In this document: positions 10,084 through 30,909 of the stretch, piece by piece
Numbering within the stretch: the first letter of the stretch is position 1
Layout of the letters: every line of letters starts with the position of its first letter
From: an uncultured Planctomycetales bacterium
GTDB lineage: Bacteria; Omnitrophota; Gorgyraeia; Zapsychrales; Aceulaceae
Direction: 5' to 3'
Length of the DNA stretch: 64,000 nt
Assembly: GCA_964486675.1 (NCBI GenBank)
Contig: CAZAOD010000001.1
Coordinates: forward strand, 5,683-69,682
Notes under the pieces: model-generated
Database searches by the model: none
What the model was told of the DNA's origin: nothing
The model's input: the letters and a program-made list of their open reading frames with translations, nothing else
Translations under genes and position numbers: made by a program

Positions 10084-10099
10084 ACATGCGAGGTAATTC

Positions 10100-10456: not shown

Positions 10457-10507
10457 GATGTTCAGCGCCCTGCCTTTTTTGGCTGCATTTTCTAGAGATT
10501 TATTCGT

Positions 10508-10536: not shown

Positions 10537-10603
10537 CGGCTCTTTAGTTGAGTCTTAAGAGAGCAAATTTGTCCTCCTTGCCGTATTAATACTTATAATA
10601 ATT

Positions 10604-13204: not shown

Positions 13205-13212
13205 AGGAAAAT

Positions 13213-14172: not shown

Positions 14173-14702
14173 TGAAGCTCAGCGCAGCGCTGAAAGCAAG
14201 AATGAAGAATATCAAGGTTTTAGCCATGGATGTTGATGGCGTGCTGACCAATGGCCAATTGATCTTTGATGGGCAAGGGCGAGAACTCAAAAGTTTTAAT
14301 GTCCAAGACGGGTTTGGTATTGTCATTCTTAAGCGTGCCGGTATCAAGACGGCGATCATCACGGCAGGCAATTCCAAGGTCGTCAAGGTCCGGGCAGATT
14401 ATCTTCATATCGATAGATTATATTCAGGTGTTTATCCCAAGATGACAGCCTACGAGCATATGCTAAAAGAATTTAAGGTTGTGGACGCTCAGGTTTGTTT
14501 TATCGGTGACGATATCACGGATTGTCAGATTCTTAAGCGTGCCGGATTGGGCATTGCTGTTCGTAATGCTGTTGCTGAGGCAAAGAGCGCTGCTGATGGG
14601 GTGACGACGCGTTGCGGCGGTGATGGAGCTGTGCGGGAAGTGATCGAGCTTTTGTTGAAAGCAAAAGGTTTGTGGACGAAGGTCGTTGCTGGCGACCTGT
14701 AG
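14172..14702 (+). CDS. kdsC: Kdo-8-phosphate phosphatase KdsC (HAD family)
   Basis: LAMDVDGVLTNG..FIGDDITD HAD motifs, 176 aa, 1-nt overlap with the kdsD stop. Confidence 0.8.
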   Translation: MKLSAALKARMKNIKVLAMDVDGVLTNGQLIFDGQGRELKSFNVQDGFGIVILKRAGIKTAIITAGNSKVVKVRADYLHIDRLYSGVYPKMTAYEHMLKEFKVVDAQVCFIGDDITDCQILKRAGLGIAVRNAVAEAKSAADGVTTRCGGDGAVREVIELLLKAKGLWTKVVAGDL

Positions 14703-14718
14703 CTTCAAGAGGTGCTTG

Positions 14719-15555: not shown

Positions 15556-16258
15556 GAACTTAGTCAAAGCATATGGCGGCCGACGGGTCGTTAATAATCT
15601 CAGCATTTCGATCGGCCGCTCTGAGATCGTCGGCTTGCTGGGGCCTAACGGCGCTGGCAAGACAACAACGTTTTATATGGCAGTCGGCATTATCCGTCCT
15701 GATGAGGGACAGGTTCTTTTTGACCAGGAAGATATTACTCATAAGCCTATCCATGACCGTTGTCATTTAGGCATTGGTTATCTGGCTCAGGAGCCGTCGA
15801 TCTTTCGGAAGTTGACGGTTGAAGAAAATATCATGCTTATTTTAGAAACATTGAGTATTTCCCCGAGGGAACGCAGGCGCCGCTTAAGCAATCTATTAGA
15901 AGAGCTAAATATTGGACATTTAGCAAAAAGTAAAGCTTATACGCTTTCAGGAGGCGAAAGGCGCCGGCTCGAGATCACGCGGGCACTTGTGACTAATCCA
16001 TCATTTTTATTGCTTGATGAACCCTTCTCGGGGATTGACCCGATCGTTGTTGCTGAAGCTCAGGAGATCATTAAAGATCTTCGAGGCAGGGGGCTGGGGA
16101 TCTTATTAACCGACCACAATGTGCGTGAAACATTATCGATCACCGACAGAGCATATCTGGTTGCTGATGGTCAGATCTTGATATCAGGAACAGCGGATGA
16201 TCTTGTTAACAATCCACGGGCGAGACAGATCTATCTTGGCGAAAAATTTCGCATGTAA
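15536..16258 (+). CDS. lptB: LPS export ABC transporter ATP-binding protein LptB
   Basis: Walker A GPNGAGKTT, the ABC signature LSGGERRRLEI, 241 aa, follows the lptC/A-like gene. Confidence 0.85.
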   Translation: MYLLEAKNLVKAYGGRRVVNNLSISIGRSEIVGLLGPNGAGKTTTFYMAVGIIRPDEGQVLFDQEDITHKPIHDRCHLGIGYLAQEPSIFRKLTVEENIMLILETLSISPRERRRRLSNLLEELNIGHLAKSKAYTLSGGERRRLEITRALVTNPSFLLLDEPFSGIDPIVVAEAQEIIKDLRGRGLGILLTDHNVRETLSITDRAYLVADGQILISGTADDLVNNPRARQIYLGEKFRM

Positions 16259-16293
16259 TAATAAAGTCGTTAAACAACTGAAGGAAAGGCAAG

Positions 16294-17205
16294 ATGATGA
16301 AAGTTGAAGTTAAGAAAGTGGACGCGACACGACGAGAACTGAGGTTCGAGGTCCCTAAGGATCGCGTCAGCCAGAGAATGGAAGAAGTCTATGGTGAAAT
16401 TTCAAAGGTCGCAAAAATTCGCGGATTTCGCCCTGGTAAAGCACCACGGCATTTAGTCGAGCAAGAGCACGGTAAGATCGCTCAAGAAAAAATGATGGAA
16501 CGGCTCATCCCTGAGGTATATCAAGAAGCCATCAAGAAAGAAAGTTTATCGCCGATCGATTTTCCAGATATCCACGATGTGCAGCTAAAGGACGGCACAT
16601 TGTTTTTTACTGCCAGTTTAGATATTCAGCCTGAGTTCGCGGTTAAAGATTACAAAGGGATCAAAGTGCAGAGGAAGTCAGCGCAAGTCAGCGACGAAGA
16701 GATCAATAAAACATTGGATTTCTTTAAAACTGCTCAAGGAAAAGAGAAAGAAGCAAAGATCGATGATGAGTTCGCTAAAGGATTAGGGTATCCTAGCTTA
16801 GAAGAACTCAAGACCTCGTTTAAGCGCCAGATGGAGCTGGAAAAGGATCGCCAAAATCGTGCGGACATTGAAAATCAGGTGATCGATTTTTTGATCAAAA
16901 ATACAAAATTGACCGTTCCCAAGACAACGATCGAGCGCCATTTACAGCGCTTGGTTGATAATGCCAAGCAGCGGTTTGAGCGGCAAAACGTGAAACCTGA
17001 AGAGATGGAAAAGCGCTTGGAGGAGTTCACGAAGAATATGCGTCCAAACGCTGAGCGGGATGTAAAAGCCTATTTTATTTTAGAGAAGATCGCTCAGCAG
17101 GAGCAAATGAAACTTGAAGAAGGGGAGAATGTCTTTCAGAAGGTCATTGGCTTTTTATTAAAAGAAGCTCAGTGGGAGGAGGCAAAAGAACATGGAAAAA
17201 AATAA
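16294..17205 (+). CDS. tig: trigger factor (N-terminal ribosome-binding and C-terminal chaperone domains; PPIase domain apparently absent)
   Basis: It has the GFRPGKAP ribosome-binding signature and lies immediately upstream of clpP. At 303 aa it is much shorter than the typical ~430 aa; in my alignment to E. coli TF the sequence jumps from the N-domain to the C-domain. Confidence 0.75.
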
Positions 17206-17797
17206 CCAGTTGTTAGTCCCGATCGTTGTTGAAAAATCTGGTCACGGGGAAAGGTCTTACGATATTTATTCCCGTCTTTTGAAAGAGCGCATTGTTTTTA
17301 TCGGAACCGCTATCGATGATAGCGTGGCCAATTTAATCATCGCGCAATTATTGTTCTTGCAGTCTGAAGACGCGACCAAAGATATCAGTGTCTATGTGAA
17401 CTCGCCAGGGGGCTCAGTGACAGCAGGATTGGCGATCTATGATACGATGCGTTTTTTGAAGCCACAGATCCGGACTTACTGCATCGGTCAGGCTGCCAGC
17501 ATGGGAGCTGTTCTTTTGACCGCCGGGACAAAGGGAAAAAGGTTCGCGCTTCCTTACGCGCGCATCATGATCCATCAGCCCTGGGGTGGTGCGCAGGGAA
17601 CAGCTAGCGATATCACGATCCAAGCGCGAGAGATCGAGCGGCTAAAGATCGATCTGATCAAGATCCTGTCTCAGCATACAGGCCAATCAGTGGAAAAGGT
17701 GACAGCGGACTCCGATAGAGACTTTTTTATGAGCGCGGAAGAAGCTAAAAAATATGGTTTGATCGATGAAGTGATCTATCATGGGGAGAATTCTTAA
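17192..17797 (+). CDS. clpP: ATP-dependent Clp protease proteolytic subunit
   Basis: Catalytic context GQAASMGA and MIHQP; 201 aa. Confidence 0.9.
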
Positions 17798-17836
17798 CAG
17801 CATTTTATTCATTAGGTGAAGAAAGGAAGTTGTTGT

Positions 17837-18979
17837 ATGAAAAGAAATTTGTTATTGTCTCCAGGTCCATCGAAAGTCCCAGCAGAACTTTGTGAAGTGT
17901 TAGGCCGTCCGATCATCCATCATCGCACGCCTCAGTTTCAGGCGATCTTAAAAGAAGTTTTCGAGGGTCTTAAAAAGGTCCTGAAAACGCAGAATGATGT
18001 TTTTATTTTTGCCTCATCGGGAACAGGGGCGATGGAGGCAGCGGTCGCGAATTTGTTATCCGCAAAAGACAAGGCAATCACCGTTGAGGCTGGAAAATTT
18101 GGCGAACGATGGACTGAGCTTTGTAAGGCGTATGGCGTTGATGCAAAAGTCCTTAAGATCGCTTGGGGCAAAGCGGTACAGCCTGCTGCCATTCAAGAGA
18201 TCTTAGCCGCTGAGAAAGATGTCAAAGCGGTCTTTATCACCCTTTGCGAAACTTCTACAGCGACCATGCCTGATGTGAAAGCCATCGCGGATATCGTTAA
18301 GCAAACAAACGCTGTGCTCGTTGTTGACGCGATCAGCGGTTTAGGGCCGGATGCATTATTAACGGACGAATGGGGCGTGGACGTTGTTTGTTCAGCCTGT
18401 CATAAGGGTTTGATGCTGCCACCAGGAGTGTCTTTTATCAGCGTCAGCCCAAAGGCGATGAAGCTTGCGGAGCAATCGACAAGCCCGAAGTATTACTACA
18501 GTTTTAAAAAGTCAAAAAAGGCCGTAGAAAAAGCAGATACGCCTTTTACACCCGCGATCAATCTTGTCATGGCCTTGAATGAAAGTTTAAAGATGGTGAA
18601 CGCCAAGGGCATCGAGAACATGTGGCCTTATTATGCTAAGATGGCGAAGGCTGTGAGAGCGGCAGCAAAGGCAATAGGTTTGACGATCTTTGCTGATGAG
18701 GCCAACGCTTCTAACGCTGTGACGGCGATCAATGTTCCGCCAGGCATTGATGGAGAAAAACTCGTCAAGGCGATGCGCGATGTCCATGGCATCACAATGG
18801 CCGGAGGGCAAGGGGAAGAGCTCAAGGGTAAAGTTGTTCGTATCGCTCACATGGGCGCTGTTGATGAGTATGATATCTTAACAGGCATTGCTGTTTTGGA
18901 GAAGGCGTTGTGTGCGATGGGGTATAAATTTGAGCTTGGCGCAGGTGTTGCCGCTGCTCAGAAAGTGTTCAATAGCTAA
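17837..18979 (+). CDS. serC: class V (AGXT-type) aminotransferase, likely a phosphoserine aminotransferase
   Basis: LLSPGPS, FIFASSGTGAMEA and a PLP-lysine context SACHKGL; adjacent to serA. ATG 17837 is preferred (AAGGAAG ribosome-binding site); GTG 17816 is an alternative start. Confidence 0.7.
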   Translation: MKRNLLLSPGPSKVPAELCEVLGRPIIHHRTPQFQAILKEVFEGLKKVLKTQNDVFIFASSGTGAMEAAVANLLSAKDKAITVEAGKFGERWTELCKAYGVDAKVLKIAWGKAVQPAAIQEILAAEKDVKAVFITLCETSTATMPDVKAIADIVKQTNAVLVVDAISGLGPDALLTDEWGVDVVCSACHKGLMLPPGVSFISVSPKAMKLAEQSTSPKYYYSFKKSKKAVEKADTPFTPAINLVMALNESLKMVNAKGIENMWPYYAKMAKAVRAAAKAIGLTIFADEANASNAVTAINVPPGIDGEKLVKAMRDVHGITMAGGQGEELKGKVVRIAHMGAVDEYDILTGIAVLEKALCAMGYKFELGAGVAAAQKVFNS

Positions 18980-18993
18980 AATAAGAGGTTGTC

Positions 18994-20580
18994 ATGATCA
19001 AGGTTTTGATAAGCGATAAATTGGCTCCGGAAGGTCTTCAGATCCTAAAGAACGTCAAAGAATTCCAGGTGGATTCTAAGCCTGGCATCTCGCCAGATGA
19101 TCTGAAGGCTATCATCAAGGATTATGATGCGCTCATTATCCGCAGCGAAACAAAAGTCACGGCGGACATCATTGCTGCTGCTGATAGGCTCAAGTTTATC
19201 GGTCGCGCGGGTGTTGGCGTGGATAATGTCGATCTGAAGGCTGCGACAAAAAAAGGAGTTGTGGTCATGAATACGCCCGGAGGCAACACGACTTCCACGG
19301 CAGAGCAGACCATGAGCCTTATCTTGGCCTTATCGCGCAATATCCCTCAGGCTTGCGCGTCATTAAAAGCTGGTAAGTGGGAGCGATCAAAATTTACCGG
19401 AGTTGAATTACACGGCAAAATATTAGGTGTCGTTGGATTAGGACGCATCGGCTCAACCGTTGCGCGCATGGCTAAAGCTTTTGGGATGAAGATCGTTGGC
19501 TATGATCCTTTTATCACGGTTGAACTTGCCAAGCAAATAGGCGTTGAGATCGTTGAAAAAGATGATCTTTTAAAGCGTGCCGATTATATTACGATCCATG
19601 TGCCAAAAAGCACGGATACAAAGAGTTTTATTTCTGACAAAGAGTTTGATCTGATGAAAAAAGATGTCCGTGTGATCAATTGTGCCCGCGGCGGGATCAT
19701 TGATGAATCTGCCCTTGTCCGCGCGTTGGAATCCGGACGGATCAAAGGATGCGCGCTGGATGTCTATGAGAAGGAGCCTCCAGATTTTCAATCGCCTCTT
19801 TTTAAATTCGACAACTGTGTCGCAACGCCGCATTTAGGGGCATCCACATCGGAGGCTCAGGTAAATGTAGCCATTGAGATCGCGGAAGCGATCCGCAATG
19901 CCTTATTGGGCCAGGGCATTGTGAATGCGACCAACTTTCCGTCGATCGATGCCGAAACGTTCAAAGTCTTGGAGCCTTACGTTGAACTGTCCGAACAGAT
20001 GGGAAAATTTGCCGGTCAGCTGATCGATGGGCGCGTCAGCAATATCAAGATCTTTTATAGCGGTGTTCTTTGTGATTATAAGACAGCGCCTGTTTCAATG
20101 GCGCTTGTTTACGGCATTTTAAAGCCTGCGCTGGGGGACAGCATTAATTTGGTCAATTCTTTAGATGTTGCCCGGGAGAGGGCGGTTAAAGTGGAAGAAA
20201 TCAAGACAAATGAGAAGCAGGAATTCGTCAACCTGATCCGCCTGGAAGTCGCGACGGATAAAGATCCGTTTGTTCTTTTTGGCACACTTTCAAGCAATAG
20301 CCAACCACGCATCGTTAAGGTGAACAATGTTTATGTCGAGGCAATTCCTCGAGGCTATATGTTGTACATTAATAACAACGACAGACCGGGGATCGTTGGC
20401 GCCGTTGGAACGATTCTTGGAAAGAACAAGATCAATATCGCGAGCATTACCTTTGGTCGCGAGCAAAAAGGAGGTCGTGTTATTAGCGTTGTCAATGTTG
20501 ATAACGAGATCCCCGAGAGTGTTCTTCAGGAGCTTCGCCAAACACCGGATATTTTATTTGTTAAATTGATTAAGGTTTAA
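18994..20580 (+). CDS. serA: D-3-phosphoglycerate dehydrogenase with a C-terminal ACT domain
   Basis: NAD-binding motif GVVGLGRIGSTVA, a catalytic His/Glu/Arg context, 528 aa with an ACT tail. Confidence 0.85.
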   Translation: MIKVLISDKLAPEGLQILKNVKEFQVDSKPGISPDDLKAIIKDYDALIIRSETKVTADIIAAADRLKFIGRAGVGVDNVDLKAATKKGVVVMNTPGGNTTSTAEQTMSLILALSRNIPQACASLKAGKWERSKFTGVELHGKILGVVGLGRIGSTVARMAKAFGMKIVGYDPFITVELAKQIGVEIVEKDDLLKRADYITIHVPKSTDTKSFISDKEFDLMKKDVRVINCARGGIIDESALVRALESGRIKGCALDVYEKEPPDFQSPLFKFDNCVATPHLGASTSEAQVNVAIEIAEAIRNALLGQGIVNATNFPSIDAETFKVLEPYVELSEQMGKFAGQLIDGRVSNIKIFYSGVLCDYKTAPVSMALVYGILKPALGDSINLVNSLDVARERAVKVEEIKTNEKQEFVNLIRLEVATDKDPFVLFGTLSSNSQPRIVKVNNVYVEAIPRGYMLYINNNDRPGIVGAVGTILGKNKINIASITFGREQKGGRVISVVNVDNEIPESVLQELRQTPDILFVKLIKV

Positions 20581-20598
20581 TATTCAAAAAGGGTGCTT

Positions 20599-21621
20599 AT
20601 GAAAAAGGTTTGTTTGTATGCTATTTGCATAGGTTTGTTCTTTGCGATAATCGGATCTGCGAGTGTTGGCTGGTGTGAGGGAACCGCCGCTGTTGAAAAG
20701 GAGTTCACGCCAAGATGCTCGAGCCATCAAGAGTGTGCGCGTCCAGGTCTTTTAGGTGTTTGTCAGTCTCCAGGCGAAAAAACTTCCCGTTGTCTTTGGC
20801 AGGAGATCGTGAAGATCCCGGTTGTTGTGATTGAGCCTGACCAGTGCCGCTCTTGTCAAAGCGAAGTTGTTTTAGAACAGCTTAGGATGTTTTTCCCAGG
20901 ATTGGAAGCTGAGCGTCTGAAAGCAAGCGATGCAGAAGCTAAAGAACTTATCGAGAAATTAAAGATCAAAATGCTGCCGGCATATATCTTAGGAAGAGAG
21001 ATCGAGCAAGAAATAAGCTTTAACGATTTTGAGCCAATGGTCTCTGCGGCTGAAGGCCAGTATTATCTTAAGCCGGAGTTCGCCGGTGTTTCATATTTCT
21101 CTGATCGCGCGCGCCGCAACAAACAATTGGACCTTTTTCTCGTTATGACATCTCCGGGCATGTATCAATCCGCTAAAATAGCCCAAGAGATCAGTAAGGA
21201 TAAAAAGCATGAGGTCAATGTCAAAATTCATTTCTTAGGATTGCAAGATGTGCAGTCCAAAAGGATCATTAGTCCTGGGGGCGAAAGGGAAATAAGCGAA
21301 AATAAAGTTTTCGCATGCGTCGAAAAATATTATCCCCAGAAAGCACTTGATTATCTTGCCGATCGTCTTCTGCAGATGGGTAATGTTTGGATTGATGATG
21401 CTTTGCAGGCCAATGGTTGCGATGTGAAGAAAATTAAGGCGTGTGCTCAATCTTCTCAAGGGGAAAAGCTGTACCAGCAGAAAGTGTCCTTGTCGCAAGA
21501 TCTCGATGTTCGTTATGCGCCGTTATTTCTCATGGAGAATACGGAGATTTTTGGTGTGACCGAAAGAACAACGGCGTCAGAAGTCCTAGAGACGTTAAAA
21601 TTATCTAATCAAAAAAAGTAA
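20599..21621 (+). CDS. exported hypothetical protein with a CxxC motif (possibly thioredoxin/DsbA-like)
   Basis: N-terminal signal peptide (MKKVCLYAICIGLFFAIIGSASVG), a PDQCRSCQ CxxC motif and several additional Cys pairs. I see no confident family match. Confidence 0.4.
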   Translation: MKKVCLYAICIGLFFAIIGSASVGWCEGTAAVEKEFTPRCSSHQECARPGLLGVCQSPGEKTSRCLWQEIVKIPVVVIEPDQCRSCQSEVVLEQLRMFFPGLEAERLKASDAEAKELIEKLKIKMLPAYILGREIEQEISFNDFEPMVSAAEGQYYLKPEFAGVSYFSDRARRNKQLDLFLVMTSPGMYQSAKIAQEISKDKKHEVNVKIHFLGLQDVQSKRIISPGGEREISENKVFACVEKYYPQKALDYLADRLLQMGNVWIDDALQANGCDVKKIKACAQSSQGEKLYQQKVSLSQDLDVRYAPLFLMENTEIFGVTERTTASEVLETLKLSNQKK

Positions 21622-21644
21622 CCTTAACCAAAGTGAGTTGACGA

Positions 21645-22916
21645 ATGAATATTGTTGTGGGTGGAGCCCAATGGGGCGATGAAGGCAAGGGAAAGCTGAT
21701 TGATATCCTTTCTCAAAAAGCAGATATTACGGTTCGGTATCAAGGAGGCAACAATGCCGGCCACACGGTCGTCGTCGGAAAAACGCAATACGTGTTCCAT
21801 CTTATTCCTTCAGCTGTTCTTCATAAAAGTAAGACATGTGTCATTGGCAATGGCGTTGTCATTGATCCGCAGGCATTGTTGGGAGAGTTGAAGCAGTTAC
21901 ATGCGCAAAAAATCGCGATCACGCCTCAAAGACTGAAGATCGCAGCTAACGCACACGTTATTATGCCATATCACAGGGTTCTCGATGGTTTACGCGAAAA
22001 AGTGCGCAAGAACCGTATTGGCACGACTGGTCGAGGTATTGGGCCTTGCTATGCGGATAAAGTAACGCGTTGCGGTATCCGCATGGTGGATCTCTTGAAC
22101 CCGCGCATCCTGCGATCAAAGCTTGAAGACAATCTGCGAGAAAAAAATGAGACCTTTCGCCTTGTCTATGGCCATAAGCCGTTTCACTTTTCAGATATTT
22201 ATAAGGAATATCTTCAGTATGGACAACAGTTGAAGCCTTTTATTTGTGATACGGCATTTTATCTTAATCAAGCGATTGACCGCAAGAAGACGATATTGTT
22301 CGAAGGCGCTCAAGGAACATTTTTGGATATTGATTTTGGAACATATCCCTATGTTACTTCTTCCAATTCTATTTGCGCTGGAGCCTGTGCGGGCGCGGGG
22401 ATATCGCCTGTCAAGATCCACAAAAGCATTTCTGCCGTAAAAGCTTATACAACGCGTGTTGGTGAGGGGCCTTTTCCAACGGAATTCTCTCAAGAGCTTG
22501 AAGAGGAGATCCGTAGCAAAGGGAAAGAGTTTGGAGCAACAACGGGGCGTCCGCGGCGTTGTGGATGGTTTGATAGCGTGTTAGTTCGTTATGCCGCCAT
22601 GTTGAATGGCTCTACTGAGTTGGCGATCATGAAGCTGGATGTTTTGGATGATCTAAAAATGATCAAGGTATGCACAGGCTATCGGTATAAAGGAAAAACG
22701 CTCAAGGAGTTCCCTTTTGACCTGGAGACTTTTTGCCATGTTGAGCCTGTTTATGTCACATTGCCCGGATGGCAGACGCCGATCAGCGGGATCCGATCTT
22801 ACGGGAAGCTTCCTGCCAACGCGAGGCGTTATATTGAATATTTAGAGAAGATTATTGGTGTAAAAGTGAAATATATTTCGATCGGCTCACGGCGCGATGA
22901 GATCATTGTCCGATAG
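21645..22916 (+). CDS. purA: adenylosuccinate synthetase
   Basis: VVGGAQWGDEGKGK P-loop and GNNAGHT; 423 aa. Confidence 0.9.
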   Translation: MNIVVGGAQWGDEGKGKLIDILSQKADITVRYQGGNNAGHTVVVGKTQYVFHLIPSAVLHKSKTCVIGNGVVIDPQALLGELKQLHAQKIAITPQRLKIAANAHVIMPYHRVLDGLREKVRKNRIGTTGRGIGPCYADKVTRCGIRMVDLLNPRILRSKLEDNLREKNETFRLVYGHKPFHFSDIYKEYLQYGQQLKPFICDTAFYLNQAIDRKKTILFEGAQGTFLDIDFGTYPYVTSSNSICAGACAGAGISPVKIHKSISAVKAYTTRVGEGPFPTEFSQELEEEIRSKGKEFGATTGRPRRCGWFDSVLVRYAAMLNGSTELAIMKLDVLDDLKMIKVCTGYRYKGKTLKEFPFDLETFCHVEPVYVTLPGWQTPISGIRSYGKLPANARRYIEYLEKIIGVKVKYISIGSRRDEIIVR

Positions 22917-23014
22917 AAAGGTATCTTTTTAAAGCCCAATCACTTACCATTATTTTCTTGACTTTGCAGAGGGCTTATGTTACTTTGGGATATTATAAAA
23001 AGGAGGAGAAATCC

Positions 23015-23665
23015 ATGCAGTTTTTACGATCGTTTATCAGTTTTTTTGTTATCGCAACACTTGTGGCAGGTCTTAGCGGGTGTACTGTTGTCATCCAAAA
23101 AGGCAGAACGAAGGATCTTCAAGAAATTTCAAATTTAAAACAAGAATTAAGCGAATTAGAGCGGGCTAAGCGAGAGTTGGAAGCAAGGCTCAGCCGAGAA
23201 ATTAACGACAAGGAAGTTTCTATTGAAATGCTTGAGCGCGGGCTTGTGATTACATTCGTTTCTGAGGTTCTTTTTGATTCTGGAAAAGCAGCTTTAAAAG
23301 CGGATTCCTTGCAAAAGCTTGGCAAGGTTGCTGGCGTTCTCAAGACGACCGTTAAGGATTTGCGTGTTGGCATTGAAGGGCACACCGACAATGTTCCGAT
23401 CCAGCGTTCTGGATGGAAATCCAACTGGGAGCTTTCTTCTGCAAGAGCGATGAGCGTCTTACACTATCTGATAGATAATGAAGGGCTTGAGCCCAACCGT
23501 TTGTCAGCGACTGGATATGGCGAGTTCCACCCTGTCGCCTCCAATGAGACAAAAGAGGGTAGGCAAAAGAACCGTCGTGTCGAGATCGTTATTTTGCCCA
23601 ATGTTTCCAAAAAGGATGCGGGAAGCGGCACAGGATCTTGGGGCGTTGAGGAAAATTTAAAGTAA
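23015..23665 (+). CDS. OmpA/MotB-domain lipoprotein (peptidoglycan-associated) with a coiled-coil linker
   Basis: Lipobox LSGC after a signal peptide and an OmpA-like C-domain (GHTDNVP..NWELSSARA..NRRVEIVI). ATG 23015 has an AGGAGG ribosome-binding site. Confidence 0.7.
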   Translation: MQFLRSFISFFVIATLVAGLSGCTVVIQKGRTKDLQEISNLKQELSELERAKRELEARLSREINDKEVSIEMLERGLVITFVSEVLFDSGKAALKADSLQKLGKVAGVLKTTVKDLRVGIEGHTDNVPIQRSGWKSNWELSSARAMSVLHYLIDNEGLEPNRLSATGYGEFHPVASNETKEGRQKNRRVEIVILPNVSKKDAGSGTGSWGVEENLK

Positions 23666-23668
23666 TTC

Positions 23669-24019
23669 ATGAAGAAGATCATCGAGAATAAAAATTTATT
23701 GATATTAGCGGCTATTAGCATTGGCTGTTTAGTAATATCGCTTGTTTCTTCTCAAAAATTTCAGCGGACGCGAGAGGATCTTAATCAAGAGCGGTATAGT
23801 CGCATGGTCGCTGAAGAGATGATGGAGAAAATGAAGTCAAAGGTCCGTATCCTTGAGGCCGACGTCAAGAAATTCCAGGCGGAGGCTGAAAAGGCGAATG
23901 CCTTATTGCAGCGCAAGGAAGGCGCTGTAGCGGAACTTAAGCTCGAACTTGAAAAGACCGAGCGTCTCAATCAAGTTCTCCAAGAGCAGTTGAAAAGCGC
24001 GCTTGTTCAGCAGAAATGA
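23669..24019 (+). CDS. small membrane-anchored coiled-coil protein (hypothetical)
   Basis: N-terminal TM helix (LLILAAISIGCLVISLV) then an Ala/Glu/Lys/Leu-rich coiled coil; the gene is followed by a strong intrinsic terminator. Confidence 0.4.
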   Translation: MKKIIENKNLLILAAISIGCLVISLVSSQKFQRTREDLNQERYSRMVAEEMMEKMKSKVRILEADVKKFQAEAEKANALLQRKEGAVAELKLELEKTERLNQVLQEQLKSALVQQK

Positions 24020-24085
24020 TGTACACCATGAATATGACAGAATAGCGCTATTAGCTTGTTGAGTAAGGATGGGTGGCATCGCGAT

Positions 24086-24112
24086 GGGGGATATATATCC
24101 CCCATTTTAATT
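24086..24112 (+). terminator. rho-independent terminator (perfect 18-nt palindrome plus U-tract)
   Basis: GGGGGATATATATCCCCC (24086-24103) followed by ATTTTAATT. Confidence 0.6.
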
Positions 24113-24127
24113 GGTGTCAGGAAAGCA

Positions 24128-24844
24128 ATGATCAGTAGTAGAATTCCAAAGCATGTCGCGATCATCATGGACGGTAATGGGCGATGGGCGAAAAAACGCC
24201 ATATGCCGCGGACCTATGGGCATCTGCAGGGGGTGCGGCGCGTAGATGATATTGTTGCTGCCGCTAGAATAGCCGGCATACAGTTCTTGACTTTATTCGC
24301 TTTTTCAGCAGAAAATTGGAATCGTCCAAGGCAGGAAGTTGATGTGCTGATGCGCACATTGGTTAAGAATTTAGACGAAAAGGCCAAGGAGCTGCACAAG
24401 GCGGATATAAAATTTCAAGTGTTAGGTTCTTTGGACGGTGTCCCTGAAAAGGTCGCCGCGGCCTTGAGCAGGGCTCAGGAACAAACTAAAGGCAACTCAG
24501 GAATGACACTTAACCTTGCCTTTAATTATGGTTCACGGCAGGAGATTTTGGATGCTGTAAAGAAGCTTTGTCGGGAAGTCAAGGACGGGCGCCTAGACCT
24601 TGATTCACTTAATGAGCAGAGCATTAGCGCTGCTTTGTATACGCGAGGAATGCCAGATCCAGATCTTTTGATCCGTACTTCTGGAGAACAGCGGATCAGT
24701 AATTTTTTATTGTGGCAGTTATCTTATAGCGAGCTTTATTTTACATCAAAATATTGGCCGGACTTTACAAAAAAAGAATTTGAGAAAGCTCTTGCGGATT
24801 ATCAAAGACGGGAAAGACGCTACGGAAAAGTTTTGGAGCCTTAA
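24128..24844 (+). CDS. uppS: undecaprenyl diphosphate synthase
   Basis: HVAIIMDGNGRWA..FSAENWNRP. Confidence 0.85.
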   Translation: MISSRIPKHVAIIMDGNGRWAKKRHMPRTYGHLQGVRRVDDIVAAARIAGIQFLTLFAFSAENWNRPRQEVDVLMRTLVKNLDEKAKELHKADIKFQVLGSLDGVPEKVAAALSRAQEQTKGNSGMTLNLAFNYGSRQEILDAVKKLCREVKDGRLDLDSLNEQSISAALYTRGMPDPDLLIRTSGEQRISNFLLWQLSYSELYFTSKYWPDFTKKEFEKALADYQRRERRYGKVLEP

Positions 24845-24848
24845 AGCT

Positions 24849-25670
24849 ATGTTGCCTCAGAGAGTATTAAGCTCAACGCTTATGGTCTTGTTAACGATCT
24901 TCGCGATCCTGAACAAGTGGTTCTTTATTGTTTTTGTTGTTGCGCTGACCATGGCTGGTCTTTATGAGTTCTTTTACCTCGTACGCAAGAAAGGGATCCC
25001 TATCTATAGTTATGTCGGGATCTTTATAGGGACCGCGATCCCTTTATCGATCTTTACGCGGTTTGAGTTGACCAAGAATTGGGAGTTATTGTTCATTGTT
25101 ATTGGATTTTTACTGTTATTGCTTTTGCAGTTTTTACGCGAAGATAATCATAACGCGATCGTCGGGATATCGACAACACTTTTTGGAGTTCTTTATGTGT
25201 CGTGGTTCTTTAGCTTTTTAGTCAAGATACGTTCGCTGATCCCGGGTGACGGGGGAATGAAACTTTTGATCTTTATCATCGCTGTCACGAAGGCAGGTGA
25301 CATTGGCGCTCTTTTAATTGGAAAAAAATATGGCAAGCATGCCTTATTAGCTAAGGTAAGCCCAAACAAAACCGTAGAGGGGTGGCTCGCGGGATTGGCT
25401 TTTGCGGCTATTGCCGCATGGTTGTGTTGGTTTTGTTTGCCAAAAGCGCTGAATTACACATTTCTACAGGTGTTACTGCTTGGCGCTTTTTTCGGGGGTA
25501 TAGGCCAGCTAGGGGACTTATCGGAGTCTATGATCAAGCGGGATTGTAATGTCAAAGATTCTGGCAAATTCTTACCCGGCTTAGGCGGCGTTTTAGATGT
25601 TATCGATAGCTTGTTGTTTGCGGCACCAGCATTTTATTTATATATGAGCTCTGCGTTAAGTACGCTTTGA
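24849..25670 (+). CDS. cdsA: phosphatidate cytidylyltransferase
   Basis: Multi-TM protein with the C-terminal CTP-transferase signature KRDCNVKDSG..PG.GGVLDV; uppS-cdsA-dxr-rseP order. Confidence 0.8.
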   Translation: MLPQRVLSSTLMVLLTIFAILNKWFFIVFVVALTMAGLYEFFYLVRKKGIPIYSYVGIFIGTAIPLSIFTRFELTKNWELLFIVIGFLLLLLLQFLREDNHNAIVGISTTLFGVLYVSWFFSFLVKIRSLIPGDGGMKLLIFIIAVTKAGDIGALLIGKKYGKHALLAKVSPNKTVEGWLAGLAFAAIAAWLCWFCLPKALNYTFLQVLLLGAFFGGIGQLGDLSESMIKRDCNVKDSGKFLPGLGGVLDVIDSLLFAAPAFYLYMSSALSTL

Positions 25671-25677
25671 TACGACA

Positions 25678-26826
25678 ATGAAGAAAATCGTTGTTTTAGG
25701 TTCGACGGGATCCATCGGCATCAATGTGTTAAAAGTTGTCGAGCGTTTTCCGCAGCAATTCCGAGTTGTCGCTTTGAGCGCTTTGAATAGTACGGATTTA
25801 TTGGCAAGGCAGATTCGTCAGTTTAAACCTCGATATGCCGCCATTGACGCAAAGCATGTTTGTGCTCTGCGTCGTGAGGTTTTCGGTTCTAAGGTATCGT
25901 TATTTGACACAAGAAGTGAGATCGACCACTTGGCAAGCTTACCGCAGGCAGATATTGTTGTTTTAGGTATTGAAGGCAGTGCGGCGCTTAGTCCATTTTT
26001 AGCGGCGATACGTTCAGGAAAGCATATTGCGCCTGCAAATAAAGAAGCGCTTGTCATGGCTGGGAGCATCTTGATGGCCGAAGCAAAAAGGCATAGAGCT
26101 TCTATTGTTCCCGTGGACAGCGAGCAGAGCGCGATCTTTCAGTGCCTTCAAGGCCAGGATCGCCAAGGATTAAAAAGAGTTTACTTGACCGCTTCTGGAG
26201 GACCTTTGCGTTGCGTACCTTGCGGCCAGCTTAAACGTGTTTCCGTTGCTGATGTGCTAAAGCATCCACGTTGGCGTATGGGCCGGAAGATAACGGTTGA
26301 CTCTGCGACCTTGATGAATAAGGGCTTAGAGGTTATTGAGGCGATGTGGCTTTTTGATTTGGCGGTATCTCATATTGAGGTTTTGATCCACCCTGAATCT
26401 ATTGTGCATTCAATGGTAGAATTTCAGGATGGCGCGGTCATGGCGCAGTTAGGTGTGACGGATATGCGCATTCCTATTCAATATGCCTTGACGTATCCGA
26501 AGCGTTCCATCGCTCCATTGCCAGCAATGGATTTTATTCGTCAGAAAACTTTGACGTTCTTAAGGCCTGATATTAAGAAGTTTCCGGCGTTGAAACTTTG
26601 CTATGATGTCGCAAAAAAAGGAACAACATTTGGCAGTGTTCTGAACGCCGCCAATGAAGAGGCTGTAAGCGCGTTCTTAAGAGAAAAGATCTCTTTTCTT
26701 AAAGTCACAGAGATCGTTCAGAAAGTGGTTGCAAAACATCGACCTTCTTCGTCGGTTACATTAAAAAGTATATTGAATGCTGATGCCTGGGCGCGAGAGG
26801 AAGCCCGGGGGTTGATCGGCAGATAG
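25678..26826 (+). CDS. dxr: 1-deoxy-D-xylulose 5-phosphate reductoisomerase
   Basis: VLGSTGSIG N-terminal NADPH motif; 382 aa. Confidence 0.9.
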   Translation: MKKIVVLGSTGSIGINVLKVVERFPQQFRVVALSALNSTDLLARQIRQFKPRYAAIDAKHVCALRREVFGSKVSLFDTRSEIDHLASLPQADIVVLGIEGSAALSPFLAAIRSGKHIAPANKEALVMAGSILMAEAKRHRASIVPVDSEQSAIFQCLQGQDRQGLKRVYLTASGGPLRCVPCGQLKRVSVADVLKHPRWRMGRKITVDSATLMNKGLEVIEAMWLFDLAVSHIEVLIHPESIVHSMVEFQDGAVMAQLGVTDMRIPIQYALTYPKRSIAPLPAMDFIRQKTLTFLRPDIKKFPALKLCYDVAKKGTTFGSVLNAANEEAVSAFLREKISFLKVTEIVQKVVAKHRPSSSVTLKSILNADAWAREEARGLIGR

Positions 26827-26832
26827 GATTAT

Positions 26833-27921
26833 ATGGGAACGCTAGTTTTTATTCTTGTTTTAAGTATTTTAGTGATCGTTCATGAATATGGTCATTTAGC
26901 TATGGCGAAGGCTTTGGGTGTGCGGGTTGAGCGATTTGCCATTGGATTTGGACCAAAGATCTTTAGTTTTAAGAAAAATGACACTGATTACGCGGTTTGC
27001 CTTATTCCTCTCGGGGGATATGTTAAAATGGCCGGCGATGAACGCGCTGACTGTAAGGGGGGCAAGGAAGAGTTCTTCTCCAAGCCTGTTGGTCATCGGG
27101 CGTTGATCGTTTTATCTGGGCCGGTCGTGAATTATCTTTTTGCGTTTATTTGTTTTTGTTTGGTTTTTATGATCGGCTATCCAGCTTTAGGGACAAATGT
27201 TAAAGAGACTGTCGCTGGTTATCCGGCACATGAGGCGGGTTTTCTTTCCGGAGACAAGATCCTTGCGATCAATAATGCTCAGGTTCATAGCTGGGAGGAT
27301 GTTCAAAAGTTCATTAGCCGTTCCTTAGATGATAATATCTCGTTTCTTGTTGACCGTAAAGGAGGGCAAAAGACCCTGATGGTGCGCTCAACGCAAGATG
27401 AAATAGAGAATATTTTCGGCCAAAAGATCAAAGCGCGTATCGTTGGCATTAAGCCTCAGGAGCAGATTGTTTTATTGCGATACAATTTCGCACAAAGCAT
27501 TGTTCGAGCAGTTGAGAAACTTATTGATATCACATGGACAACATATAAAGCGCTTTATTTGATGATCACAGGGGCAATGTCCACGAAGGACGGGATGACC
27601 GGGCCGATTGGGATCTTTTTTATCATCAAGAAAGCGGCAGAGTTAGGATTTACCTACGTTCTTTATATTATGGCTGTCATTTCCGCGAGCTTAGCGATCT
27701 TTAATCTTTTACCGTTACCTGTCTTAGATGGAGGGCATTTGTTGCTATTCGGCATTGAGAAAGTAAAAGGAAAACCGCTGCCTGCCAAGGCGGAGGAAAT
27801 CGTTTATAAGATCGGGTTAAGCGTGATCATTTGTTTAGCGGTCTTTATTTTTTATAATGATTTTGTTCGTTATGGTGTTTTTGATAAAATATTCACGATA
27901 AAGGATCGTTTAGGTTTTTAG
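26833..27921 (+). CDS. rseP: RIP metalloprotease RseP (site-2 protease, M50 family)
   Basis: HEYGHLAMA zinc motif, a PDZ-like central region and a C-terminal LDGG motif. Confidence 0.85.
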   Translation: MGTLVFILVLSILVIVHEYGHLAMAKALGVRVERFAIGFGPKIFSFKKNDTDYAVCLIPLGGYVKMAGDERADCKGGKEEFFSKPVGHRALIVLSGPVVNYLFAFICFCLVFMIGYPALGTNVKETVAGYPAHEAGFLSGDKILAINNAQVHSWEDVQKFISRSLDDNISFLVDRKGGQKTLMVRSTQDEIENIFGQKIKARIVGIKPQEQIVLLRYNFAQSIVRAVEKLIDITWTTYKALYLMITGAMSTKDGMTGPIGIFFIIKKAAELGFTYVLYIMAVISASLAIFNLLPLPVLDGGHLLLFGIEKVKGKPLPAKAEEIVYKIGLSVIICLAVFIFYNDFVRYGVFDKIFTIKDRLGF

Positions 27922-27936
27922 CGAAGAGAGGATCTC

Positions 27937-29199
27937 ATGTTAGAGCAAGTCCGTAATCTGATGCAAAAACATTTAATTACAAAAACAGATTTCTTAAAGG
28001 TCAAGGAATCATTGACCGAGGACCAGATTCGTGTTTACGCTAAAAATGCGATAGACCAGACTTGCAAAGATAATGAATTGCTTTTGTCCGAAGAGGAGCG
28101 TGGACGCCTGATCAAGCAATTCGTCGCTTCTGTGATCAGTCTAGGGCCCATACGCCCTCTGATGGAGGACAAGAGCATATCGGAGATCATGATCAATGGT
28201 CCGCATAAGATCTATGTTCAGCGTCACGGTAAGATCGAACTTAGTCCGGTCAGATTTCAAGATTCTAAGGAACTTATGCATACGATTCAAAAGATCTTGT
28301 CTGAGTCTTCATCTGGACGGCGTGTAGATGAATCATCGCCATATGTTGATTTTTCTTTGCCTGATGGATCACGTGTTAATGTGATCCTGCCGCCAGTGTC
28401 TTTGATCGGGCCGGTGGTGACCATTCGCAAGTTTTCTTCAGAGATAGAGACGATCGAAGATCTTTTAAAACTGGAAATGCTTAGCAAGCCGATGGCGGAT
28501 TTTTTGATCGCTGCGATCCATGCGAAGCTGAATATTATTTTTTCTGGGGCAACGGGAACAGGCAAAACAACAACGCTCAACGTCCTCTCGCGGTATTTGC
28601 CTGAAAGAGAGCGCATTGTGACGATCGAAGACACAGCAGAGTTGCGACTTAAACAGGAGCACGTTGTTAGTCTTCAAGCAAAGGCGGCCAACGTAGAAGG
28701 CAAGGGAACTATTAGCATCCGCGATCTTTTTGTTAATTCTTTACGTATGCGCCCTGACCGTATCATTATCGGTGAGATCCGAAGCAATGAAGCGCTGGAC
28801 CTTATCCAGTCGATCAGCAGCGGGCATTCTGGATCGCTGGCCATTGTTCATGGTGATTCACCAAAAGATTGTTACAACCGCCTTGTCACAATGCTATTGT
28901 CCACGGGCATTCCGCTAAGCGTTGATGAGATCAGGCGTCAGATCGCCGGTGCGATCGATATGATCGTGCATACGGAGATCTTTATCGATGGTAAACGCCG
29001 CATCACGCATATCACGGACCTTGTTTACAATGAAAATGCGAACGCGATATCACTAAAAGATATTTTTTATTTTAAAGAAGAACAAGTCACGTCTGATGGG
29101 CATACGATCGGAAAGTGGGTTGCGACAGGACATCAACCTTCTTGTCTGGAAAAGTTCGTCAGACGTAATATCAAGATTTTATTGCCAACACAAGGTTGA
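27937..29199 (+). CDS. CpaF/TadA-family type II/IV secretion ATPase (VirB11 superfamily), orphan
   Basis: Walker A GATGTGKTT, an Asp box, Walker B and a His box (AIVHGDS). None of the tadB/tadC/cpaB/pilin genes is nearby. Confidence 0.75.
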   Translation: MLEQVRNLMQKHLITKTDFLKVKESLTEDQIRVYAKNAIDQTCKDNELLLSEEERGRLIKQFVASVISLGPIRPLMEDKSISEIMINGPHKIYVQRHGKIELSPVRFQDSKELMHTIQKILSESSSGRRVDESSPYVDFSLPDGSRVNVILPPVSLIGPVVTIRKFSSEIETIEDLLKLEMLSKPMADFLIAAIHAKLNIIFSGATGTGKTTTLNVLSRYLPERERIVTIEDTAELRLKQEHVVSLQAKAANVEGKGTISIRDLFVNSLRMRPDRIIIGEIRSNEALDLIQSISSGHSGSLAIVHGDSPKDCYNRLVTMLLSTGIPLSVDEIRRQIAGAIDMIVHTEIFIDGKRRITHITDLVYNENANAISLKDIFYFKEEQVTSDGHTIGKWVATGHQPSCLEKFVRRNIKILLPTQG

Positions 29200-29202
29200 T
29201 CG

Positions 29203-30456
29203 ATGCGCTGGAGTCAGTTTTATATCCCAACAATCAAAGAGATCCCCATAGGGACAGAGGCGGCAAGTCATCAGCTTTTGTTGCGCTCAGGATTGGTTCA
29301 GATGCTTACCTCTGGGGTTTATTCTTATCTTCCGCTTGGGCTTCGCGCGCTGCGTAAGATCGAAGCAATCATTAACGAAGAGATGAACGTTATTGGTGCG
29401 CGAGAGCTCCTTTTGCCGTCATTGCAACCTATGGAGCTATGGAAAAGAACTGGGCGCGACGAAACATTAAAAGATGTCATGATTCAGTTCAAAGACAAAA
29501 AAGGCCGGGCCATGTGTTTGGGCCCAACGCACGAAGAAGTGATCACGGACCTGGTCAAGAATCATGTGCGTTCCTATAAGCAGTTGCCGGTTGTCCTTTA
29601 TCAGATCCAGACCAAATTTCGAGATGAAATGCGTCCACGTTTTGGCATTGTTCGCGCTTGTGAGTTTATCATGAAAGACGCATATAGTTTTGATCAGGAT
29701 GAACAAGGCTTGAGAAAAAATTATGAGCTTATGTACACAGCTTATCAGAAGATTTTCTCGCGTTGCGGGTTGAAAGTTGTGGTTGTCGAGGCTGATTCGG
29801 GTGCAATGGGAGGCGATATTTCACATGAGTATATGGTGCCAGCGGAGATTGGCGAAGACGAGGTTCTCTGCTGTGATGCATGTGATTATGCTTGCGGCAT
29901 CAATAAGGGTAAGGAGGGAAATAGTTGTCTTGTTTGCCAAAAAGGAGCGTTGATCAAGAGATCCGCGATCGAGATAGGGCATATTTTTCAGCTAGGAACA
30001 AAATATAGCAAAGCCCTGGATGTAAGCTTTTTAGATGAAAAAGGGCAGAAGAAGACTGTTGTCATGGGGTGCTATGGGATTGGTGTTAGTCGCTTGATTG
30101 CGACGATCATTGAAAAGAATCACGATGCTGCTGGTATCGTTTGGCCAAAGGAAGTAGCTCCTTTTGAGGTTGAGATCCTTCCTCTTCAGCTTAGCGATGG
30201 CGATATGATGCGTCAAGCTGATAAGCTGTATGTTGATCTGGCCAGGCAGGGGATCGACGTTTTCATGGATGATCGTGATGAAAGCCCTGGAAAGAAATTC
30301 AATGATGCGGATTTGATTGGAATTCCTTATCGTGTAACGCTTGGTAAACGCATGTTGGCAGAGGGGAAGGCTGAGATCAAGGATCGCCGTAGCGGAATGG
30401 TATTTGCTGTCGAGCTCGCGCGCGTAGCGGAAAAACTGAAAGAGGTTTTACGTTAG
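29203..30456 (+). CDS. proS: prolyl-tRNA synthetase, bacterial type, with the INS editing domain replaced by a short Cys4 insert
   Basis: Class II motifs are present and the sequence aligns to E. coli ProRS up to CDACDYACGIN (E. coli SDTSDYAANIE). About 15 aa later it rejoins at LIKRSAIEIGHIFQLGTKYS, leaving 417 aa in total. Confidence 0.8.
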   Translation: MRWSQFYIPTIKEIPIGTEAASHQLLLRSGLVQMLTSGVYSYLPLGLRALRKIEAIINEEMNVIGARELLLPSLQPMELWKRTGRDETLKDVMIQFKDKKGRAMCLGPTHEEVITDLVKNHVRSYKQLPVVLYQIQTKFRDEMRPRFGIVRACEFIMKDAYSFDQDEQGLRKNYELMYTAYQKIFSRCGLKVVVVEADSGAMGGDISHEYMVPAEIGEDEVLCCDACDYACGINKGKEGNSCLVCQKGALIKRSAIEIGHIFQLGTKYSKALDVSFLDEKGQKKTVVMGCYGIGVSRLIATIIEKNHDAAGIVWPKEVAPFEVEILPLQLSDGDMMRQADKLYVDLARQGIDVFMDDRDESPGKKFNDADLIGIPYRVTLGKRMLAEGKAEIKDRRSGMVFAVELARVAEKLKEVLR

Positions 30457-30909
30457 ATGCAGGATCTTAAAGATAAGATCTCAAGTCTGGTAGGGCCTTT
30501 TATGGCTGAGCAAGGTTTTGATCTGGTGGATGTTCATTGTCTTCATCGCAGAGGCGTAGATGCGGTACAAATTTTAGCTGACAGGCCGCGAGGGGGGATC
30601 ACAGTTGATGAATGCGCCGATCTCAGCCGGCAGATCGATACCATTCTTGAGAAAGAAAATGTTTTTTCAGGGAGCTATACACTAGAAGTTTCCTCTCCGG
30701 GTATCGATCGTCCGCTTGCCAGCGATAAAGATTTTTCTAGGGCAACAGGAAAAGAGGTCGTTTTTTACCTGAAAGAACCTGTCCAGGGACGCTTAGAGTG
30801 GCAAGGCATTATTTTACGGTCGGATGGAACAAGCGTGATCATTCAGAGCAGGGGCATTGAGGTGGATATATCTTTTCAATTGATTAACAAAGCACAACTT
30901 GTGTTCTAA
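30457..30909 (+). CDS. rimP: ribosome maturation factor RimP
   Basis: 150 aa, located upstream of nusA-infB; I recognise the conserved RimP N-domain pattern. Confidence 0.7.
   Translation: MQDLKDKISSLVGPFMAEQGFDLVDVHCLHRRGVDAVQILADRPRGGITVDECADLSRQIDTILEKENVFSGSYTLEVSSPGIDRPLASDKDFSRATGKEVVFYLKEPVQGRLEWQGIILRSDGTSVIIQSRGIEVDISFQLINKAQLVF

Follow-up and report, generated by a model that had tools for sequence, protein, structure and literature searches.

A 64,000-nucleotide stretch of DNA from an uncultured bacterium of the Omnitrophota (contig CAZAOD010000001.1; hereafter the window) encodes a CpaF/TadA-type ATPase, a relative of the motor of Tad (type IVc) pili, between the genes of the site-2 protease RseP and of prolyl-tRNA synthetase (ProRS). 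Judged by comparison with its relatives, this apparent "orphan" is best described as one member of a phylum-wide CpaF subfamily that is embedded among housekeeping genes and is marked by the diagnostic loss of an arginine finger and by a paralog with reciprocal losses. All Omnitrophota loci were reached via the ATPase itself, and "phylum-wide" therefore covers the lineages reached. We see about even chances that the protein is an active motor acting in trans, with its platform encoded elsewhere and with constitutive co-expression of its gene and the proS operon. No description of a housekeeping-embedded CpaF subfamily was found in the literature that we searched.

Gene position beside proS and family identity

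The position of the gene next to proS is kept throughout the Omnitrophota lineages reached and is an abnormal place for a CpaF. The best 120 database matches of the ATPase are 418 to 429 amino acids (aa) long at 57% to 91% identity, and all named ones belong to Candidatus Omnitrophota with Ca. Aceula as the nearest genus, which has been placed in Velamenicoccia/Zapsychrales (Seymour et al., PMC10066038). A scan with one genome per species yielded at least 80 CpaF loci. Among the loci listed, all 6 of Omnitrophota type (including the complete chromosome CP070807.1, and with ATPases down to 46% to 49% identity) share the gene order uppS-cdsA-dxr-rseP-(ispG)-cpaF-proS-rimP-nusA-infB, with ispG between rseP and the ATPase gene in the deeper lineages. 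The proS-linked arrangement is found at none of the 73 listed loci from other phyla, where TadB/C is encoded in the flank of 67, nearly always less than 170 nucleotides (nt) downstream, while TadZ is mostly encoded directly upstream and RcpC around 1.3 kb upstream.

The same separation is evident from 120 metagenome loci that were sampled with a degenerate DNA pattern on the signature motif of the clade and whose taxonomy was inferred from clade membership and synteny; the pattern restricts codon 217 (numbering of Caulobacter CpaF), which leaves the context result unaffected. Among the 79 loci with an Omnitrophota-clade ATPase, 77 show a housekeeping context, none has Tad genes nearby, and 2 have no annotatable neighbour, compared to 0, 40, and 1, respectively, among the 41 loci with an ordinary CpaF (Fisher's exact test of clade versus context for loci with annotatable context, p = 3e-32). 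The proS gene directly follows the ATPase gene at all 55 metagenome clade loci with a visible gene there, and at 14 other loci as well, whereas the upstream gene is either ispG (49 loci) or rseP (22 loci). Neither the locus in the window nor any other clade locus shows the co-localisation of tadZ, tadB, tadC, and (in diderms) rcpA by which TXSScan/MacSyFinder define a Tad system (Denise et al., PMC6668835). The comparison of synteny in relatives that the sequence-only reading had proposed thus reveals a proS-linked, Tad-free placement that recurs in the clade loci. For a few CpaF genes from other phyla (L035, L040, L045, L054, and L069, from Terriglobales, Actinomycetes, Abditibacterium, Verrucomicrobia, and Chloroflexia), the flanking sequence at hand likewise showed no T2SSF gene; L040 contains two CpaF genes, and a stop-free open reading frame (ORF) of L045 spans around 1015 codons.

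The ATPase gene itself starts with ATG and has 420 codons, and the Pfam model T2SSE (PF00437) matches residues 69 to 344 of its product (E = 2.4e-53). The closest solved structure in a phmmer search of the PDB is CpaF of Caulobacter (8rkd/9e24; E = 3e-90, 306 bits) with about 50% identity across ATPase residues 48 to 398 (around 350 residues). Similarly, Foldseek with the AlphaFold2 (AF2) model ranks CpaF first (E = 2e-35; top structures 8rjf, 8rkd, and 9e24, full length). This model is of moderate confidence (mean predicted local distance difference test score 75.4) and has N-terminal helices within residues 2 to 66 (2–16, 19–25, 28–45, and 52–66) ahead of alpha/beta domains, a predicted architecture of three-helix bundle, N-terminal domain (NTD), and RecA-like C-terminal domain in the same order as in CpaF of Caulobacter and TadA of Aggregatibacter. 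The alignment to the solved structure begins at residue 48, which corresponds to Caulobacter residue 127, and around 70 residues lie ahead of the hinge glycine compared to a median of 116 in CpaFs from tad operons. Unlike Caulobacter CpaF, the window ATPase lacks the disordered N-terminal region of around 79 residues that promotes retraction (PMC11300603).

The top NCBIfam model for the full-length protein is TIGR03819 ("TadA family conjugal transfer-associated ATPase"; 271.6 bits), but this score is below the cutoff of 373.15 and the window has no helicase or conjugation context. The runners-up are VirB11 (217 bits), FlaI (181 bits), and TrbB (171 bits), with PilT, GspE, and PilB far lower, and these sub-threshold matches could suggest a VirB11/TrbB-type ATPase of a conjugation or type IV secretion system or a FlaI-type archaellum ATPase instead of a CpaF. 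However, the scores of these models are below their own cutoffs and well below the CpaF/TadA-type match, and the PDB sequence and fold searches put CpaF far ahead (archaeal GspE 133, FlaI 130, VirB11 122, and PilT/U 45 to 47 bits by phmmer). Furthermore, the clade branches only with CpaFs in our trees (neighbour-joining of 91 to 101 CpaFs over around 350 columns, without VirB11 or FlaI outgroups), and no type IV secretion or archaellum genes are present in the window. We consider such an identity very improbable. The next-best structural relatives, archaeal ATPases of the FlaI/GspE2 type, share the same three-domain architecture but differ in their far lower scores at only around 25% identity and in that no archaellum or archaeal pilus genes accompany the ATPase in the window.

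Compared to its 90% identical ortholog in a related locus (L001), the ATPase gene shows a proportion of nonsynonymous differences (pN) of 0.068 at a saturated synonymous proportion (pS) of 0.81, with pN values of 0.110 for rseP, 0.112 for proS, and 0.062 for purA in the same comparison. It is thus a real gene under strong purifying selection that is tighter than for its essential neighbours rseP and proS. The sequence-only reading had proposed an operon remnant as one of two explanations for the solitary gene, and the idea of a decaying leftover of a lost tad operon draws solely on the absence of neighbouring Tad genes. It is refuted by the data on selection and conservation, i.e., the low pN, the at least 120 clusters of orthologs (57% to 91% identity, 418–429 aa), and the phylum-wide conserved position next to proS, besides the intact frame with a Shine-Dalgarno-like site and a GC content that equals that of the window (0.450 versus 0.458), so that we give this scenario practically no weight. 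A horizontally transferred island was also ruled out based on the matching GC content and the orientation of all genes on one strand.

The rseP stop lies 15 nt before the start of the ATPase gene, the proS ATG follows its stop after 3 nt, and no terminator-like sites were seen on the forward strand between rseP, cpaF, and proS. Because of this tight packing, cpaF is probably co-transcribed with rseP, proS, rimP, nusA, and infB, and its expression would therefore be constitutive.

Arginine fingers and the after-proS paralog

Sequence motifs of the ATPase were placed by alignment to Caulobacter CpaF, and the roles of individual residues were taken from previous work (Hohl 2024, PMC11300603; Yen 2025, PMC12019362). 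This alignment confirms that the protein is a 420-aa VirB11-superfamily ATPase of the CpaF/TadA type with Walker A, Asp box, Walker B, and His box intact, as the sequence-only reading had stated: K210/T211, E235, and E280/R282 correspond to CpaF K287/T288, E312, and E357/R359, and the His box aligns to H382. Each active site of CpaF is built from two chains, with Walker A and the fingers R217 and R223 on one and R347 on its neighbour (PMC12019362). Both R223 and R347 are arginine in all 21 curated members of the clade that is encoded before proS, and K287, T288, E312, E357, R359, H382, R223, R347, and D215 are each kept in 20 to 21 of them. The same is true for the predicted contacts to the platform at D208, E331, G332, and G334: The aspartate of Loop 8 (D208) is kept in 21/21 clade members and in 75/75 CpaFs from tad operons, and the Central Loop motif E-G-x-G (E331, G332, and G334) is present in 21/21 clade members. 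In Caulobacter, D208K abolishes Tad function and a central-loop mutant is also non-functional (PMC11300603). Assembly into hexamers and hydrolysis of ATP would both be compatible with these features.

What sets the window ATPase apart is an incomplete set of arginine fingers (R217, R223, and R347), with Ser140 in place of R217. At this position, the 21 curated clade loci encode serine (19), methionine (1), or cysteine (1), and it is non-arginine in all 120 homology matches, an unbiased sample, as well as in 79/79 metagenome clade loci for which the search pattern had restricted codon 217; by contrast, it is arginine in 75/75 CpaFs from tad operons. Additional clade-fixed switches compared to canonical CpaFs are G282 to alanine, V342 to phenylalanine, T372 to serine, and loss of R425, and the window protein bears the clade signature S140, A205, F265, and S295. 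No basic residue that would compensate for the lost R217 is evident in the clade, and the loss of this finger probably tunes ATP turnover without abolishing activity. An independent change of R217 to serine is seen in an unrelated CpaF with a fused FHA-domain-like N-terminus (L126, positions 2–1402, reverse strand) from an organism with a low GC content of 31%. Since this protein is encoded in a genuine Tad locus with secretin, RcpC, and A24 peptidase, loss of R217 alone does not exclude Tad function.

The Omnitrophota proteins encoded before proS form a single clade (100/100 bootstraps) with around 59% identity among each other and around 48% identity to CpaFs from tad operons. A second CpaF gene directly after proS was found at locus L005 (positions 12677–13942), and other after-proS copies are present at L084, L085, L086, L091, and L092 (gene at around 8001–11266), with those of L087–L089 belonging to the same family. 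These paralogs (cpaF2) resemble the window ATPase in their length of around 410 to 421 aa, their housekeeping context without Tad genes, and their membership in the same Omnitrophota-specific clade, but share only around 43% identity with it. They have histidine at R347 (9/9 loci), serine or threonine at D208, and no first histidine of the His box while R217 is kept, and 97 of the top 120 matches in a search with the second copy of L005 have R347 replaced by histidine and D208 replaced by serine, threonine, or asparagine. The arginine-finger losses are reciprocal: The before-proS proteins lack the cis finger R217, and the after-proS proteins lack the trans finger R347 together with the Loop 8 aspartate.

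Down to 47% identity, all inspected contexts of second copies follow the order rseP-ispG-cpaF1-proS-cpaF2-rimP-nusA-infB. The proteins encoded after proS group in a clade of their own (100/100) next to their sister, the before-proS clade, and both are joined against all CpaFs from tad operons (97/100). The existence of sister clades that are each found on one side of proS points to an ancient duplication of CpaF around proS followed by differential loss. Among around 40 informative metagenome loci, 13 carry both copies while proS abuts rimP at the other 27, as it does in the window, and lineages with only the after-proS copy occur as well. One of the latter (L088, positions 431–1837) encodes a HAMP-GAF-HD(-GYP-like) signalling protein between rseP and ispG. 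The metagenome-assembled genome of L005 (CAYYFL010000001.1) is labelled "uncultured Planctomycetia bacterium" yet has the full Omnitrophota synteny and both paralogs, i.e., it is probably mislabelled or misbinned, and the case of P0173 (labelled "Deltaproteobacteria bacterium") appears similar.

The complementary defects of two sister paralogs (R217 in one, R347 and D208 in the other) and their widespread co-occurrence would fit a scenario in which the ancestral proteins bracketing proS formed an alternating heterohexamer. Each active site joins R217/R223 of one chain to R347 of its neighbour, and this geometry (PMC12019362) would thus confine all defects of an alternating ring to the same three sites. 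Three sites would then have all their fingers, whereas each of the other three would carry two defects, and only one of the two paralogs would keep the aspartate for platform contact. For the window protein, this explanation demands a partner of the second-copy type encoded elsewhere. However, proS abuts rimP in the window, no second copy is present after proS or anywhere else in its 64 kb, and around two thirds of the informative loci are single-copy like the window. A search for second copies gave no match on contigs of 0.5 to 1.3 Mb that carry close orthologs (an indirect comparison). Lineages with only the after-proS copy do not fit either, and the prior of the geometric coincidence is only around one in two. 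In addition, the multi-module CpaF proteins that we found are fusions of canonical modules and not of the two Omnitrophota paralogs (a "Rosetta-stone" test). A heteromeric ring that includes the window protein hence seems improbable to us. We are slightly less sceptical, while still doubtful, about a broader version in which an ancestral cpaF1-proS-cpaF2 two-gene motor worked as an alternating heterohexamer in the proS-nusA-infB operon, uncoupled from tad, and the lineage of the window secondarily became single-paralog; due to its place in a housekeeping operon, such a motor may serve a constitutive and possibly non-pilus function.

The multi-module proteins (P0372–P0384) are 743 to 1605 aa long, consist of canonical-type CpaF modules in tandem (two to four per protein), and appear to be covalently linked multi-module motors. 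By eye, the Walker motifs of some of them look degenerate (e.g., P0379).

Platform partners and possible function

The favoured reading is an active hexameric motor ATPase of the CpaF/TadA family from an Omnitrophota-specific subfamily that is encoded off tad operons and directly before proS. It would be transcribed constitutively with rseP, proS, rimP, nusA, and infB, and the hexamer would dock on a GspF-fold platform protein from another genome locus to power a Tad-like filament or secretion machine of the type that Omnitrophota reportedly use to attach to hosts or to prey on other cells. With R223 and R347, two of three arginine fingers are kept, and loss of R217 would adjust ATP turnover. 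An active motor that still docks to a GspF-fold platform is suggested by the conserved catalytic core, the presence of both contact motifs, and purifying selection. Platforms of this kind exist in the phylum, given that 74 of 116 Velamenicoccia species were reported to encode TadB/C and RcpA and that V. archaeovorus LiM (CP019384.1) has a complete, expressed Tad locus at 12382–29832 (PMC10066038). Conserved Tad/T2SS-like (type II secretion system-like) loci were also described to adjoin giant genes across Omnitrophota (West-Roberts et al., 10.1101/2023.11.21.568195).

Several observations weigh against this reading. The ATPase gene never adjoins Tad genes in the loci reached, which counts toward functional divergence, and genes for a platform protein, TadZ, RcpC, a secretin, or a peptidase are absent from the surrounding 10 kb or so at all of the around 96 clade loci (0/~96). 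No platform gene from an ATPase-carrying genome was seen in the loci reached, and scattered Tad systems are described as "very rare" (Denise et al., PMC6668835). Tad genes are found in only part of the Omnitrophota (PMC10066038) while the ATPase is present in every lineage reached. The Tad/T2SS-like loci of the phylum are reported to hold a "gspE" ATPase of their own (10.1101/2023.11.21.568195) and thus may not need the proS-linked protein. The clade is altered at positions R217, V342, T372, and R425 that are invariant in canonical CpaFs, and its identity to these is around 43% to 51% while canonical CpaFs of different phyla (Proteobacteria, Firmicutes, and Chloroflexi) share around 57% to 75%. 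Finally, no NCBIfam model reaches its equivalog cutoff with the window ATPase.

Alternatively, the proS-linked subfamily may have been repurposed, so that it no longer serves a Tad pilus but drives another, so far unrecognised process, whether in soluble form or together with a partner from outside the Tad system. This corresponds to the other explanation of the sequence-only reading and could account for why the gene is kept in a housekeeping operon phylum-wide. This alternative draws on the uncoupling from Tad genes at all of the around 96 clade loci, the clade-specific changes at the four invariant positions, the missing N-terminal extension, which in Caulobacter regulates retraction, and the report of Tad/T2SS-like loci with their own ATPase. 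Furthermore, one example genome of Seymour et al. has the cpaF KEGG orthology (KO) term without cpaB/cpaC or tadB/C KOs among the entries listed (as binary presence). Yet the clade shows no variation in RRVDESSP and N-x-E-G-K-G, the two motifs predicted to contact the platform, which is hard to explain by repurposing without a GspF-like partner, and no alternative partner candidate is conserved beside the ATPase. We therefore rate repurposing as unlikely, though it is the most serious competitor. Between continued platform binding and recruitment to another machine, the sequences give each partial support, with conserved contact residues on one side and divergence at invariant positions on the other.

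A platform partner of the proposed trans-acting motor was looked for in several ways. Omnitrophota TadB/C group with those of Bdellovibrionales (Seymour et al., PMC10066038), and a search with a Bdellovibrionales TadB as query for an Omnitrophota platform returned only Bdellovibrionota among its best 120 matches (at least 69% identity). For a taxonomic assignment of the 40 metagenomic Tad loci, these were compared by tblastn to all proteins from the window and from Omnitrophota flanks, which gave no matches. A preprint on complete Omnitrophota genomes makes no mention of CpaF or TadB/C KOs. One complete Tad locus (P0179/L090), from the long matches of the search with the second copy, was considered as a candidate from Omnitrophota but rejected based on its 63% GC and a CpaF that is 75% identical to those of Firmicutes/Chloroflexi. 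A Bdellovibrionales Tad locus (L081) encodes a TadZ-CpaF fusion of 714 aa with ParA/MinD-like TadZ part (positions 9116–11260); the next genes are one of T2SSF type and one for an RHS-repeat protein, in this order.

Neighbouring genes in the window and significance

The immediate surroundings of the ATPase gene and its motifs are summarised in Table 1.

Table 1. Positions of the ATPase gene, its motifs, and adjacent features in the window (residue equivalents refer to Caulobacter CpaF).
Feature	Positions	Strand	Basis or remark
rseP (site-2 protease), upstream neighbour	26833..27921	+	TIGR00054, 290 bits, cutoff 148
Shine-Dalgarno-like AGAGAGGA in the rseP-cpaF spacer, ~6 nt before the ATPase ATG	27923..27930	+	sequence read
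cpaF-like gene, ATPase of the before-proS subfamily	27937..29199	+	ORF, T2SSE, PDB, Foldseek, clade bootstrap 100/100
N-terminal helical region, residues 2–66, corresponding to the three-helix bundle/NTD1 of CpaF	27940..28134	+	AF2, PDB alignment
Loop 8 motif RRVDESSP, D131 = D208, predicted platform (TadB/C) contact	28318..28341	+	
Ser140 codon, in place of cis arginine finger R217	28354..28356	+	clade signature
Arg146 = second cis arginine finger R223, kept	28372..28374	+	
Walker A/P-loop GATGTGKTT, residues 204–212 (K210, T211)	28546..28572	+	clade-typical G282 to Ala at A205
Asp box TIEDTAEL, E235 = E312	28621..28644	+	
Central Loop NVEGKG (E254, G255, G257), predicted platform contact	28690..28707	+	
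Arg270 = trans arginine finger R347, kept	28744..28746	+	
Walker B DRIIIGEIR (E280, R282)	28756..28782	+	
His box SGHSGSLAIVH (H297, H305)	28819..28851	+	clade-fixed T372 to Ser at S295
proS, short ProRS of 417 aa, downstream neighbour	29203..30456	+	NF006625, 598 bits, cutoff 558
proS-rimP junction, stop abuts ATG, second CpaF paralog absent here	30454..30459	+	

We annotated the window with Pfam on all ORFs of at least 150 aa and with profile hidden Markov models (HMMs) of Tad components on all ORFs of at least 50 aa; the latter models were built from a textbook Tad locus (L081), iterated over all retrieved loci, and missed none of the components of a control Tad locus (L090). All annotated genes are on the forward strand and of housekeeping type. 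They include genes for synthesis of lipopolysaccharide and 3-deoxy-D-manno-oct-2-ulosonic acid (Kdo), lpt genes, tig, clpP, serA, purA, uppS-cdsA-dxr-rseP, proS-rimP-nusA-infB, trpS, scpA, ruvB, queA, tgt, trmD, polA, rho, prfA, and trp genes. T2SSF/TadB/C, TadZ, RcpC, secretin, and prepilin peptidase are absent from the 64-kb window according to the profile HMMs. The earlier description of an ATPase located between rseP and proS (TIGR00054 and NF006625, both above cutoff) and standing alone among housekeeping genes therefore holds, with no Tad, pilus, or secretion gene in the window.

We also considered a cryptic platform among the unannotated neighbours, but this was rejected because no more than one hydrophobic segment is present in any of the candidates (a 342-aa ORF, an OmpA-like protein, and a 116-aa ORF). 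The three conserved neighbours without annotation comprise a protein that is secreted and soluble, one that resembles OmpA, and a coiled-coil protein with a single membrane pass, and none is polytopic. The 342-aa ORF (20593–21621, +) has a signal-peptide-like N-terminus and no Pfam match; it shares 67% identity with its counterpart in the sister genome (L001), and a search of more distant Omnitrophota loci at E 1e-10 did not detect it.

Some other genes of the window have unusual forms. The short proS (29203–30456, +) matches two halves of bacterial-type ProRS models with the central part missing, which we read as a ProRS without the INS editing domain, and its length of 417 aa recurs in all related loci. 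The trigger factor (16294–17205, +) has only 303 aa with N- and C-terminal domains but no match to the peptidyl-prolyl isomerase domain. Apparent fusions join a lipid A acyltransferase to an ELM1-like domain (1918–3864, +; 648 aa), a GT4 glycosyltransferase to a GT9 heptosyltransferase (3861–5966, +; 701 aa), and LptC to an LptA/LptD_N domain (14686–15555, +; 289 aa). Close to the end of the window, a c-di-GMP-I-GGC (cyclic di-GMP) riboswitch is predicted at 60072–60227 (+; RF03167, 61.5 bits at a gathering threshold of 59, E = 4e-12); this match spans 156 nt compared to 80 positions of the model. A stop-free frame of at least 1198 codons lies directly 3' of it (60407–64000, +) and runs off the window end. 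Its start near 60449 resembles a signal peptide, and its first 1183 aa have no Pfam domain. It may encode one of the large or giant surface proteins of Omnitrophota under the control of c-di-GMP.

To our knowledge, the characterised motors of type IV filaments (PilB, PilT, GspE, CpaF, and FlaI) are homohexamers that are usually encoded together with their platform. A precedent for Tad-like genes that are split between loci is reportedly the Kil system of Myxococcus xanthus, a Tad-like machine of this predator for contact-dependent killing of prey, though its ATPase is said to be encoded within the Tad-like gene cluster and not in a housekeeping operon. The Omnitrophota, which are ultra-small and probably host-dependent or predatory, keep one or two CpaF-type genes beside proS and off pilus genes. 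The gene is routinely labelled "CpaF family protein" and can be read as evidence of a Tad pilus, but alone it is not evidence of a Tad system; the proS-linked ATPases can be told from the true ATPases of tad operons by their proS context combined with signature residues 217 and 347. The reciprocal finger losses are a natural experiment on the number of arginine fingers that a CpaF motor needs, and the two-paralog arrangement is a testable candidate for a heteromeric motor. If true, the type IV filament superfamily would with such a heterohexamer gain its first heteromeric motor of natural origin.

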